DNA of 64,000 bases from a virus. Shown one piece after another: positions 55,469 through 61,912 of the stretch. Position 1 is the first letter of the stretch. Each line of letters opens with the position of its first letter. The notes under the pieces were generated by a model that ran no database searches, was not told the DNA's origin, and saw only the letters and a list, made by a program, of their open reading frames with translations. Made by a program: the position numbers and the translations under genes. The stretch spans positions 1 through 64,000 of the IMG/VR virus record IMGVR_UViG_3300049460_000134; one strand, written 5' to 3'.

Positions 55469-55711
55469 ATGAGTATTCACGTTCTCATCCGATCCAATCC
55501 ACCCTGTCCTTCCTGCCTCAAGACAAAAGCGCTCCTTGAGCGGCGCGGTCTGGCCTTCACGGCAGAAGATCACGAGACGCCGGAGAAGGTTGAGACCTTC
55601 GTCGCTGCCGGCCATCGCACCTTTCCGCGCGTCTTCATTGACGACAAGCTGATAGGTGGCTTCGAAGATCTCGAACGCCATCTTGCTTCGCTGGAAGATG
55701 ACGATTTCTGA
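55469..55711 (+). CDS. Glutaredoxin
   Basis: CPSC, TFPRVF, IGGFEDL. Confidence 0.88.
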   Translation: MSIHVLIRSNPPCPSCLKTKALLERRGLAFTAEDHETPEKVETFVAAGHRTFPRVFIDDKLIGGFEDLERHLASLEDDDF

Positions 55712-55756
55712 GAAATAGCGCTTGCGTCCCAATCGCGCATCGTTATAAATGCTCTT

Positions 55757-55777
55757 GTAAGTAAATACTGACTGACA
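55757..55777 (+). promoter_or_regulatory. Operator-like motif copy
   Basis: GTAAGT AAAT ACTGAC TGACA at the start of the ncRNA region. Confidence 0.75.
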
Positions 55778-55861
55778 CGAAAGCGATGTGTCAGTCAGTT
55801 CCAGCGATCGAAGATCAACCGCTCTACGAGGTGTCGCCTTATGAACCGCTAAGTCGGGTTT

Positions 55862-55879
55862 ATCAGTCAAAATTGATTA
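55862..55879 (+). promoter_or_regulatory. Operator-like motif copy (degenerate)
   Basis: ATCAGT CAAA ATTGAT TA. Confidence 0.55.
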
Positions 55880-55921
55880 AGAAAAAGACGTCGCCAGGAG
55901 CCGTCAGAAAATAAACCTGGC

Positions 55922-56027
55922 TCTTATGTGAGTGGAGCGCGAAGGCTGAGCTAAAGGCCTGTTGTATTCGCGATGCAGCGAAACGAGAAAACCGGATTCT
56001 CGCGTAGCGGGCTCCGCTCACATAAGA
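55922..56027 (+). ncRNA. Cloverleaf structured RNA of unknown family
   Basis: 17-bp closing stem TCTTATGTGAGTGGAGC / GCTCCGCTCACATAAGA enclosing three hairpins. Confidence 0.55.
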
Positions 56028-56097
56028 GACCTGACGAGGACTGCGGTGAAGTCTCTCGCTTACAAGCGTGGCTAGGGTTCGAGTCCCTTAAGGGTCG
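56028..56097 (+). tRNA. Degenerate tRNA-like element (pseudo tRNA-Val TAC)
   Basis: D arm GGAC-tgcggtgaa-GTCT, anticodon region CTTACAA, T arm AGGG-TTCGAGT-CCCT; mismatched acceptor stem and short anticodon loop. Confidence 0.5.
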
Positions 56098-56126
56098 CCT
56101 GTTCAACACCTACTGAGGAGAAGCGC

Positions 56127-56411
56127 ATGTCTGCCACCATTCTTGCATTCAAGCCGCGTTCTAAGCCAGAGCCGGAGTCCGTAAAGCAGCCGGCGCCTAA
56201 CCAGCTCGAGATTTCAAAGTTTGAGTGCGATCACCTCGACCGCGTGATTGATCGCGCCGTCCATGTGCTTGACGTCATCCACTCTGGTCCGGCGCTCATC
56301 AAGCAGTTCCTCGCCGGCCAGCGCACGATCGCCTCCACCGTCAAGCACGGCGGCGTCGAATACGAGCTGCAGATCAGCCTCGTCGAAAAGCATTCCCCTC
56401 GCTTCGCATAA
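56127..56411 (+). CDS. Hypothetical protein
   Basis: GAGGAG RBS. Confidence 0.6.
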   Translation: MSATILAFKPRSKPEPESVKQPAPNQLEISKFECDHLDRVIDRAVHVLDVIHSGPALIKQFLAGQRTIASTVKHGGVEYELQISLVEKHSPRFA

Positions 56412-57086: not shown

Positions 57087-57105
57087 AACAATAAGGACAC
57101 CTCCT

Positions 57106-58101
57106 TTGACCTTTCTCATCAATGACCCTGTGACGAAGATCACCGGCGACTACAGCTTCGACGGCACGGTCGTCGCAGCATTCGACAAGCAGGACGGCAA
57201 GCAACGCTACGTCGTCGAGGACGATCGCGGCGCGCTGCATATCTACAGCGAACAGAACCTCCGGCTGATCGGCAACATGGCTGATCACCAGTATCTGCGT
57301 GTCCTCAAGAAGCTGCTCGACAAGGGCGTCTATCGCGAAGGTCGCAACGGCGGCACTTATGGTCTCTTCGGCGAACAGATGCGCTTCGACCTCTCTCGCG
57401 GCTTCCCGCTGCTGACGACCAAGAAGGTTCACTTCCACTCCATCGTCGTTGAATTGCTCTGGTTCCTCCGCGGCGAGACGAACATCAAGTTTCTGAAGGA
57501 CCATAACGTCTCGATCTGGGATGAATGGGCTGACGAGAAGGGTGATCTTGGTCCGGTCTACGGCGCGCAGTGGCGCACCTGGCCGACGATCGAGCATCAG
57601 TGCGCCGATATCTACTATCCCGGCCACATCGACCAGATCCAGAAGGTGATCGACGGCCTCAAGCGCGATTCATACGGTCGCCGGCACATCGTCTCGGCAT
57701 GGAATCCGGCTGAGATCGATGAAATGGCGCTTCCGCCCTGTCACTGCCTCTTCCAGTTCTTCGTGTCTGACAACAAGCTGAGCTGCCAACTCTACCAGAG
57801 GAGCGCAGATTGGTTTTTGGGGGTCCCATTCAACGTTGCCTCATACGCGCTGCTGACCATGCTGATTGCGCGCGAAACCGGCCTTCAGCTTGGCGAATTC
57901 GTGCATAGCTTCGGCGATCTGCACCTCTACGCCAATCACATCGAGCAGGCCAAGGAGCAGCTCACTCGCGAGCCGCGCAAGTTGCCGAAGGTGCTCATCA
58001 ATCCGGACATCGACAAGCACATCTTCGACCTGGAAGTCGGTGACGTCGCTCTCGTCAACTACGATCCCCATCCAGCGATCAAAGCGCCGGTCTCAGCGTA
58101 A
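57106..58101 (+). CDS. thyA: Thymidylate synthase with N-terminal DfrB/R67-like SH3 domain
   Basis: [41 protein letters not shown]; AAGGA RBS and TTG start add a 57-aa N-domain. Confidence 0.92.
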
Positions 58102-59575: not shown

Positions 59576-61912
59576 ATGGAAGTTTCGCAGCTTGCGCAGC
59601 TCGACACACACGCCGTCATCGGCGGTGAAGATCCTGAAGCGTTCGGCATGGCTGATACTCCAGAATTCTATCAGATGCTCTCAGCCAGCATCTATCGCGA
59701 CAAGATCCGCGCAGTCGTGCGCGAGACGATCTGCAATGGCTGGGACGCGCATATCATGGGCGGCTGCACCGACAAGGCAGTGCAAGTTACACTCACGGAC
59801 GAGGAGCTTGTCATCAAGGACTTCGGTCCCGGCATTCCGCATGAGAAGATGCGGCCGATCTATTGCATCTACGGCGTTTCGACGAAGGTGAAGGATGAGA
59901 GCCAGACCGGCGGTTTCGGTCTCGGATCCAAGTCGCCATTCGCCGTCACCGATCACTTCTCCGTCGTCTCGTGCTTTGCAGGCACACGCTCTGTCTATGC
60001 CATCTCTCGCGGTGGCAAAGCTACAAGCGGCAAGCCTGACATGCGCCGCATGGTCGCCGTGCCGACAACCGAAAGCGGCGTCACTGTCACGGTCCCGATC
60101 AAAAAGGAAGAGCGCGAGAGCTTTGCCAAGCACATTCGCGCCGTTGCAAAGCAGGGCGGCATGCTGGTGACGCTGAACGGCGAACTTCTGGAGCGCTTCG
60201 ATTACGAGGAGGCGCGCAAGACTGAGTTCTGCGTCGTCGCGCCTCACTGGATGCACGAAAGCCGCATCTATACGCTCTACGGCACCGTCCTCTATCCGGT
60301 GATGACGACCGACCCTGATATCTCCAAGCTGACACGCGATATCGAAGGCCTGATCGGCTACGGCTCGACGCTGGTTATCGTTGCCCCGCCGAATTCAGTC
60401 GAAGTCACGCCGTCGCGCGAGTCCCTCTCTTTTACGGATGGAACCACCGACACCATCAAGCGGCTGCTCGACAAGGCATGCACGCGCATCAGCAAGGCAA
60501 TTCCGGCAGCTACTAAGCTCGCTGTCGATGCACGCGTTGCAAAGAACGGCCGCCTAGCGCTCGCGAGCAAGATCCACGCGATCAGAGAGGTGCCTGAGAA
60601 GGTTCTCTCCAGTGCGCTCGCGATCGCCGAGCACGCCGTCCGCTCGAATCCTGATAACCATATCCAGTATGATCGACAGCGGCGCCTATGCCTTCAGGCA
60701 GCGCAGCGACTGTTCAAAGATGATCGCCGCACCTTCCGCCGTGCGCTGAAGCGTGGTTACAACGCTGGCGAGGACAGCTTCAAGGCGTCGAGCAAGCCGC
60801 TCATCCGCATTGCCTCGAAGATGGGCATGCTGAAGGATGCGCACCTCTTCAACATCTACGCCTATCGCTACCAGACGATCGGCTCCAAGACCAATCCGCT
60901 GAAGGAGCACGACACCGGGGTCGTTAGGCCTGTCCTTTGCGTGGCGCGCAATCTGCGCGATCTGCGACCGACGATGAGCGGTGCAAGCAGCGGTTTTCCG
61001 CCGGACAAGGATAGCTTCATCGCCGGCCTGGTCATGCGCCAGTGGACTGCGGAGCGCCTGAAGCAGCTTCGCGCGCTCGCCGAGCACTACAAGCTGAAGC
61101 TGGTCATCTTCGATTACGAAGCAGCGAAGAAGCCGAAGAAAGCACCGGTCAAGCGCGAAAAGATCGTCGACAAGTATTTCGCCCTTGGTGATTTCAGGGG
61201 AACGACTTGCGAAACGGCAAACCTCGAAAATCCGAAATACTTCCTGATGAGCTTTGCGCGCGAAGGCATGCGTTCGCCCTTTCAGGATGAAGGCCATCAA
61301 TACCACCACCTTCTTGCGAAGCGCTATCCGGAGACGGCTGTCATTTCGTCCAAGACAGACGCTGAGAAGCTGATGAAGCGCGGCGCAGTCAATCTGACCG
61401 GTGTCATTGCCAAGCGCATTGCGGAGCTCGCTGGGGTCCGTGAGGTCCAATACGCTTACGCGATCCGCGAAGGCCTGATGTGCAACGGCAATTATCACCA
61501 CTACCCATCAGACCTGGCCATTTCGTTCGCCAAGCTCGACATGCGGATTGCAAAGCGCCTGTTCCCCGACAAGGCGACGCCTGGCGCTCTCGCTGAAGAA
61601 GGCTTGCTTCTGAACGACGTGATGAACTCGCTGCGGCTCGATTATCAGGACCGCAACTGCGGCGGCAATGAAGCCAAGCTCAAGATCTGGACGTCTGCGA
61701 GAGAGACCTACAAGGCCATGACCACGTCATATGCCGACCAGAAATTCAGTTACTTGAGCGTCCTGGCAGGCATCAGAGTTACCGGCGGCATCAAACGCAA
61801 GATCGATGATCTCCACGACATCATCGTCTTTTTGCAGGACCGCGAGAGTAAGTCAAAATTGACTGAATCCCTTTTGAACCCAATTGCTAACGCCCAGAAG
61901 GAGGCAGCATGA
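59576..61912 (+). CDS. rIIA-like protein (GHKL ATPase N-terminus)
   Basis: RETICNGWDAH, DFGPGI, GGFGLGSKSPF, PSRESLS. Confidence 0.85.
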   Translation: MEVSQLAQLDTHAVIGGEDPEAFGMADTPEFYQMLSASIYRDKIRAVVRETICNGWDAHIMGGCTDKAVQVTLTDEELVIKDFGPGIPHEKMRPIYCIYGVSTKVKDESQTGGFGLGSKSPFAVTDHFSVVSCFAGTRSVYAISRGGKATSGKPDMRRMVAVPTTESGVTVTVPIKKEERESFAKHIRAVAKQGGMLVTLNGELLERFDYEEARKTEFCVVAPHWMHESRIYTLYGTVLYPVMTTDPDISKLTRDIEGLIGYGSTLVIVAPPNSVEVTPSRESLSFTDGTTDTIKRLLDKACTRISKAIPAATKLAVDARVAKNGRLALASKIHAIREVPEKVLSSALAIAEHAVRSNPDNHIQYDRQRRLCLQAAQRLFKDDRRTFRRALKRGYNAGEDSFKASSKPLIRIASKMGMLKDAHLFNIYAYRYQTIGSKTNPLKEHDTGVVRPVLCVARNLRDLRPTMSGASSGFPPDKDSFIAGLVMRQWTAERLKQLRALAEHYKLKLVIFDYEAAKKPKKAPVKREKIVDKYFALGDFRGTTCETANLENPKYFLMSFAREGMRSPFQDEGHQYHHLLAKRYPETAVISSKTDAEKLMKRGAVNLTGVIAKRIAELAGVREVQYAYAIREGLMCNGNYHHYPSDLAISFAKLDMRIAKRLFPDKATPGALAEEGLLLNDVMNSLRLDYQDRNCGGNEAKLKIWTSARETYKAMTTSYADQKFSYLSVLAGIRVTGGIKRKIDDLHDIIVFLQDRESKSKLTESLLNPIANAQKEAA
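61848..61866 (+). promoter_or_regulatory. Intragenic operator-like motif upstream of rIIB
   Basis: GTAAGT CAAA ATTGAC TGA within the 3' end of rIIA. Confidence 0.65.

Follow-up and report, generated by a model that had tools for sequence, protein, structure and literature searches.

Fusions of dihydrofolate reductase (DHFR) with thymidylate synthase (TS) occur in eukaryotes (protozoa and plants) and in giant viruses, where the reductase lies N-terminal to TS and a single chain carries consecutive steps of the dTMP cycle; the reductase of these proteins is a monomeric, FolA-type domain of ~160-230 aa with its own active site. The type-B enzyme R67 (DfrB1) is a stand-alone protein of 78 aa found on plasmids and integrons, neither fused nor phage-borne. 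To our knowledge, DfrB-TS is the one case known in which a type-B (SH3-fold) DHFR is fused to thymidylate synthase. This protein (BBD027md-00173_03685) combines a domain with 31% local identity to DfrB1 and the B4 motif LHIY with a bacterial-type ThyA (PMC12486381, Mol Biol Evol 2025, msaf215). Both its TS and its DHFR activities were verified, the latter with a KM(DHF) of 28 uM and a kcat of 2.3 per s; the enzyme is trimethoprim resistant, forms a tetramer plus an octamer, and is regarded by its authors as the first such fusion in bacteria, the metagenomic or single-cell contigs being too short to annotate (PMC12486381). The same study lists LHIY among the catalytically competent motifs, reports assays of stand-alone LHIF and QMIA homologues for trimethoprim-insensitive DHFR activity, gives identities of 24-35% for its cluster-II enzymes, and finds viral cluster-II DfrB homologues near ThyA in genomes that lack FolA (PMC12486381). 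Distant SH3-like homologues of DfrB had already been reported to tetramerise and to reduce dihydrofolate (DHF) (PMC9835603, 2023).

The window considered here is a 64,000-nt stretch that forms part of a virus record of 115,555 bp that is complete and has direct terminal repeats (DTR). In all likelihood, positions 57106-58101 of this window encode a bifunctional protein of 331 aa that joins a type-B DHFR domain to a canonical ThyA in an RHEph10-like phage, with DHFR catalysis ascribed to it by analogy with the published family member (features in Table 1). The enzyme type has already been published as DfrB-TS (PMC12486381); the window protein fits that type and is not new as an idea, and our additions are modest: a home in cultured RHEph10-like phages, an annotation error, and a locus where a ThyX-like gene can take its place. 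The two fusions have in common a DfrB SH3 domain placed ahead of a bacterial-type ThyA, the LHIY motif, an identity to DfrB1 of about 30% (31% published, 28-29% in the window) and a predicted DfrB1-like tetramer, their likeness being judged by shared motif, architecture and cluster features. Whereas the published protein was presented as bacterial, as a single case on a short single-cell contig, the fusion described here comes from a phage genome that is complete (115.5 kb), and it recurs in cultured Rhizobium phages and in 20 further fused clusters.

Table 1. Features of the fused gene and its product, in window coordinates.
Feature	Position	Strand	Basis
SD-like AAGGA	57093..57097	+	8-nt spacer before TTG start codon; read directly
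TTG start codon of fused gene	57106..57108	+	invariant in 5 aligned phages; database gene call for the fused gene (331 aa; the window's own entry, 98% identity) also starts here
DfrB/R67-type SH3-like domain, residues 1-57	57106..57276	+	fold model, family profile, dN/dS
Lys11, equivalent of R67 Lys32	57136..57138	+	HMM alignment; invariant in three alignments including the 104-sequence family
Phe18, aligned with R67 Trp38 (dimer-dimer interface, loop L1)	57157..57159	+	HMM alignment
LHIY pore motif, B4 strand, residues 44-47, aligned with R67 V66-Q67-I68-Y69	57235..57246	+	HMM alignment
Junction Met58, in-frame internal ATG	57277..57279	+	taken as the start of ThyA in GenBank entries for related phages
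Complete ThyA domain, residues ~58-331, including stop codon	57277..58101	+	Pfam, NCBIfam, PDB, motifs
Catalytic Cys212 (ALPPCH)	57739-57741	+	motif

Compared with the DHFR-TS of eukaryotes and giant viruses, the reductase domain of the window protein is an unrelated SH3 domain of 57 aa that would need four chains per active site rather than one, and the arrangement thus appears to be a convergent solution. A convergent DHFR-TS had been proposed for this gene in the initial annotation; the idea is supported here, though not as a novelty, since it is already in print (PMC12486381). What the complete genome provides is an independent confirmation of the DfrB-TS fusion and of a convergence with eukaryotic DHFR-TS of textbook quality. 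The accompanying suggestion, that such phages form an environmental reservoir of DfrB-like folds, is weak as far as clinical DfrB is concerned: the window domain is of the divergent cluster-II type, at ~28-29% identity to R67, and a 2024 report (PMC11662351) places the origin of clinical dfrB in Burkholderiales.

The fused open reading frame continues from the TTG codon to a TAA at 58099-58101 with no intervening stop, so that the 57-aa domain and a complete ThyA lie in a single chain of 331 aa, separated by a linker of ~3 residues. The ribosome-binding site and TTG start originally proposed, together with the 57-aa in-frame extension that they imply, are borne out by the sequence and its translation; the extension as first quoted matches the translation but lacks the first two and last two of the 57 residues. 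The reading frame stays open upstream to 57025, and sequence preceding 57106 is unconserved in related phages while the TTG and the SD-like box are conserved. In a DNA alignment of the window phage with four related phages, a purine-rich box (AAGGA, AAGGAG, AGAGAA or AAGGAA) occupies the equivalent position in all five, between diverging flanks, and changes within the domain itself fall mostly at third positions. For the final 50 codons of the domain, pairwise dN/dS (Nei-Gojobori) is 0.066-0.111 at dS of 0.62-1.81, and the 171 nt of the extension are under strong purifying selection.

It might be argued that translation begins instead at the internal ATG 57277, leaving the upstream 171 nt as an untranslated leader or a relic; ThyA is annotated in just this way in GenBank for RHEph10 and RHph_N1_10, and TTG is a rare start codon. 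We consider this highly improbable. Such low dN/dS at dS of up to 1.8, a frame that remains open upstream in all relatives, and a conserved TTG with its SD-like box all argue against it, as does the confident fold obtained for the upstream segment (AF2 pLDDT 96). The ATG at 57277, for its part, has no purine-rich SD-like motif within the preceding 20 nt, in agreement with the initial annotation, which had seen no clear ribosome-binding site there. The same N-terminal domain also occurs in 20 further ThyA clusters (314-340 aa; 64-93% identity over the first 60 residues), and a Met at the junction is found in 11 of 22 fused sequences (with the window's two entries counted), the other 11 having A, D, S, N, K, Y, W, L or Q in its place. 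Since the junction Met is absent from half of the fused family, the internal ATG cannot be the general start of ThyA, and a start solely at 57277 is contradicted by these data taken with the conservation and dN/dS. The extension is confirmed as a real, selected domain that is translated as part of ThyA. The boundary between the two parts was taken from a full-length AF2 model, used for this purpose only because its mean pLDDT was 70, the alignment having had just 28 rows: three residues separate the domain's final strand (52-54) from helix 58-73, the first of ThyA.

Among isolated phages, those closest to the window phage are Rhizobium phage RHEph10 (83.5% nucleotide identity over conserved genes) and RHph_N1_10, N1_15 and N2_6, all four of which carry the domain at 84-90% amino acid identity. 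In the GenBank record of RHEph10 (JX483881), however, the 153 nt of the domain at 61501-61653 (locus L081:4001-4153) are unannotated and ThyA is started at the internal ATG; the record of RHph_N1_10 (MN988505) likewise leaves 171 nt at 88676-88846 (locus L082:4001-4171) unannotated. Because ThyA is started in this way in GenBank, the protein sets of NCBI and UniProt lack the fused protein. For those fused clusters whose source is listed, Logan, ENA and JGI are the only origins, which fits a GenBank annotation that omits the domain. Systematic misannotation of ThyA starts would in this manner hide trimethoprim-insensitive reductases from protein databases and from surveys of resistance genes. 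The cultured Rhizobium phages, on the other hand, allow a phage-genetic test of the physiological role of the fusion, beyond what E. coli alone could provide.

An AF2 model of the N-terminal domain (pLDDT 96) contains five strands, at residues 8-11, 19-27, 33-39, 44-47 and 52-54, and a Foldseek search of the PDB with this model returned R67 DHFR at ranks 1-7 (TM 0.80-0.82, rmsd 1.9 A, 28-29% identity). The R67-like SH3 match that had been anticipated for this segment is therefore the top result by structure, and it is also first in the profile search: a profile of 104 family sequences had the R67 Q67H mutant (2p4t) as its best PDB match, with the whole domain covered at E 0.011, a value that is not significant taken alone, and four of its six PDB matches were R67 entries (type II DHFR). 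Searches with the single sequence were less informative. The 57 aa gave just sub-threshold matches to CSD_RNase_II and DUF7556 in Pfam, and IFT144 at E 0.033 with R67 absent in the PDB, while the window protein did not match PF06442 (DHFR_2) even at E<=10. By contrast, 13 of the 104 family members match PF06442 singly (best E 8.3e-5), the next commonest family being matched by four members. At the Pfam level, then, membership of DfrB is suggested transitively only, through the family profile and these 13 relatives; the published cluster-II enzymes, at 24-35% identity, are no less remote.

The barrel shared with R67/DfrB1 (PDB 1vie, 2rk1; Q67H 2p4t) is five-stranded and SH3-like, of ~58 residues, and superposes at a TM of 0.8. 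The HMM alignment sets K32, W38, Y46, E58 and S65-V66-Q67-I68-Y69 of R67 opposite K11, F18, F26, E38 and A43-L44-H45-I46-Y47 of the window protein, and is identical to the one drawn by eye in the initial annotation (K32 to K11, E58 to E38, VQIY to LHIY). Equivalents of K32, E58, I68 and Y69 are conserved, K32 being the residue of R67 that binds the negative groups of DHF and NADPH (PMC9835603). K11 thus corresponds to the lysine at the pore mouth, and LHIY has the nonpolar/polar/nonpolar/aromatic make-up of VQIY-like B4 motifs. Differences from R67 include an identity of just 28-29%, a sequence that falls below the PF06442 threshold, the replacement of Gln67 by His and of Trp38 by Phe, and an L3 loop two residues shorter, as a result of which the window domain has no equivalent of His62. 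The best PDB match is itself a mutant with His at position 67, where the window protein has His45. Residues V9, K11, G14, D15, Y16, F18, G20, R34, V36, V37, E38, L44, H45 and L52 are invariant in the alignment of fused proteins, and across the family as a whole Lys11 and His45 vary little or not at all.

A different reading would make the domain a generic Tudor, KOW or chromo-like barrel, unrelated to DfrB, resembling R67 through convergence at the level of the fold and serving, for instance, as a nucleic-acid- or protein-binding tag. Tudor and PWWP domains do follow closely in Foldseek (TM ~0.77, E 7e-3 and above), but at 9-24% identity, behind seven R67 entries at 28-29%. With a profile of seven sequences, uL24 KOW (E 0.018) stood slightly above R67 (E 0.22), although the KOW match spanned positions 4-31 only and that to R67 the full length; the KOW reading was dropped, as these matches vanish with the 104-sequence profile, which puts R67 first, and the fold search likewise returns R67. 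Given in addition that 13 family members reach PF06442 and that the functionally critical positions match those of R67, an unrelated barrel is scarcely credible, and we regard a DfrB/R67-like identity of the N-terminal domain as supported.

Modelled as a complex of four copies, the domain scored 0.80, compared with 0.04 for the best of three controls, with contact agreement between runs of at least 93% and partner pLDDT of at least 89. Of 30 proteins solved as same-chain pairs, 20 reached the mark used to judge such scores, as did one of 23 solved as single chains; this calibration was made with two copies and not four, and an R67-like result may stem from solved R67 structures already known to the model. 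The four-copy model speaks for likeness to R67 and not for binding. In it, strand residues 21-30, 34-38 and 42-46 make the contacts of one pair of copies, and residues 15-18 touch 41-44 in another pair. Interfaces of DfrB1 have been described as B2-B2 and L1-L3 (PMC12486381), and the predicted contacts correspond to these same two, through the B2 strand and through loops L1 and L3. The R67-like tetramer that a structure model had been expected to yield is thus indeed predicted, subject to the same reservation about known R67 structures.

The remainder of the protein is a complete thymidylate synthase. PF00303 covers residues 61-330 at E 5.8e-112 (profile positions 1-265 of 266), NCBIfam NF002497 scores 412 bits against a cut-off of 327, and the PDB gives TS at E 9.5e-110. 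The catalytic C212 (ALPPCH) and the Arg, Asn and His residues conserved in the dUMP/folate site, R80, R232 (RSAD), N243 (PFN) and H273 (GDLHLY), are all present, and we take them to be equivalent to the corresponding numbered residues of E. coli TS. At 57610-57650 (ThyA residues ~160-175), following a conserved QWR..W, there is a short and very variable insertion whose length differs in nearly every fused homologue and which is of low confidence in the model.

The gene is embedded in a nucleotide-supply module comprising RNR beta and alpha, glutaredoxin, DfrB-TS, dUTPase and a P-loop NTPase. In order, its neighbours are the RNR large subunit, glutaredoxin, small open reading frames, the fused gene, dUTPase, the P-loop NTPase and an rIIA-like ATPase; the upstream RNR beta subunit and the name rIIA are taken from annotated relatives. 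The initial annotation had noted that the window encodes no FolA-type DHFR, which holds and can be extended: neither a FolA-type DHFR (PF00186) nor ThyX was found in the complete 115.5-kb genome, and PF00186 is also absent from four relatives with the fused gene. Between the glutaredoxin gene and the next small open reading frame lies a gap of ~415 nt (55712-56126) that has no convincing open reading frame. RHEph10 has a tRNA-Cys at the corresponding place; ARAGORN found no tRNA in 55600-56300 of the window.

Beyond the fused proteins the domain is common. An exhaustive profile search detected it at E<=1e-3 in ~2005 representative clusters, mostly proteins of 59-230 aa. It also occurs in six close stand-alone proteins. 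The stand-alone viral cluster-II DfrB homologues (e.g. A0A6J5PTB3, with LHIF) belong to the same domain family at 55-68% identity to the window domain, and their published representative is an active trimethoprim-insensitive DHFR; they differ in being separate genes of 55-95 aa, which are often directly upstream of a ThyA-like gene, although some carrier phages have no ThyA at all. Among 80 IMG/VR loci with the domain, three are fusions, all in phages of 115-116 kb. At a further 22 of the 80 a ThyA-like gene lies immediately downstream, no more than 400 nt away and on the same strand, at four it is elsewhere within 6 kb, and 51 have none nearby. Two complete phage genomes (with DTR; loci L016 and L071) encode the stand-alone domain and lack both a ThyA-family gene and FolA, so that a tie to dTMP synthesis is not a constant property of the domain; in these phages the domain may have a different role. 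When the genomes of 185,579 prokaryote species were scanned with two domain patterns, three loci came up, all in gammaproteobacterial MAGs and none beside ThyA, a pattern-limited result that weakly hints at a mainly viral subfamily.

In the sister phages RHph_Y2_11 (L086:5190-6101) and V1VFA-S (L087:4220-5167), which have the same gene order, the syntenic slot is occupied by a divergent ThyX-like gene. This gene matches ThyX models only, at 19-24 bits and below cut-off, and gave no sequence match in the PDB; the label 'ThyX-like' is owed in part to the depositors' annotation (FAD-dependent thymidylate synthase). ThyX yields dTMP without producing dihydrofolate (PMC12486381), and if the SH3 domain recycles the DHF made by ThyA, one would expect a locus at which DfrB-ThyA alternates with a ThyX-like gene, as it does here. 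It appears that the 'ThyA+DHFR' function as a whole has undergone non-orthologous displacement, and the exchange would then amount to natural genetic evidence that the domain closes the folate cycle.

We propose that a D2 tetramer is built from four SH3-like domains, held together by contacts of the B2 strands and of loops L1 and L3, and that the central pore, lined by Lys11 and the LHIY strands, would bind NADPH and dihydrofolate and allow hydride transfer through proximity. The ThyA domains would dimerise in the usual way and produce dTMP and dihydrofolate, which the attached DfrB pore could turn back into tetrahydrofolate. By recycling ThyA's dihydrofolate, such a pore would make the dTMP cycle of the phage independent of host FolA and insensitive to trimethoprim-like inhibition. 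The host presumably has a FolA of its own, and hence the reductase would not be strictly required.

A different possibility is that the domain is a true DfrB homologue but non-catalytic, tetramerising TS or binding nucleotides or folates with no meaningful DHFR turnover in vivo. SH3 folds usually are binding modules, oligomerisation and nucleotide binding have been suggested as native functions of DfrB domains, and clusters III-V of the same study are inactive (PMC12486381); the two complete phages that carry the domain and no ThyA point the same way. Yet activity, at a kcat/KM close to that of DfrB1, was reported for cluster-II proteins carrying LHIY or LHIF (PMC12486381), and the near-invariance of Lys11 and His45 fits a ligand-binding pore better than a surface that acts as glue. 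The presence of a DHF-producing ThyA where FolA is absent, and of a ThyX-like gene in the same slot of sister phages, also speak for turnover, and on balance we judge a non-catalytic module unlikely. The DHFR(II)-TS fusion of the initial annotation is accordingly upheld by fold, profile, predicted tetramer and selection, with catalysis suggested by the published LHIY enzyme.

It is tempting to go one step further, and we lean slightly towards a scenario in which DfrB-TS, rather than a bacterial one-off, is a phage invention carried by a clade of cultured ~115-kb RHEph10-like Rhizobium phages and hidden there by misannotated ThyA starts. In this clade DfrB+ThyA and the ThyX-like gene would then be interchangeable cassettes at one locus, each freeing dTMP synthesis from host FolA, and the published 'bacterial' DfrB-TS would most likely be phage or prophage DNA.

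The domain can also be repeated within one protein: natural proteins with two or three DfrB-like copies per chain (P0031, P0033, P0034; L025:6001-6393) are counterparts of the engineered tandem variants of R67, such as that in PDB 3sfm.
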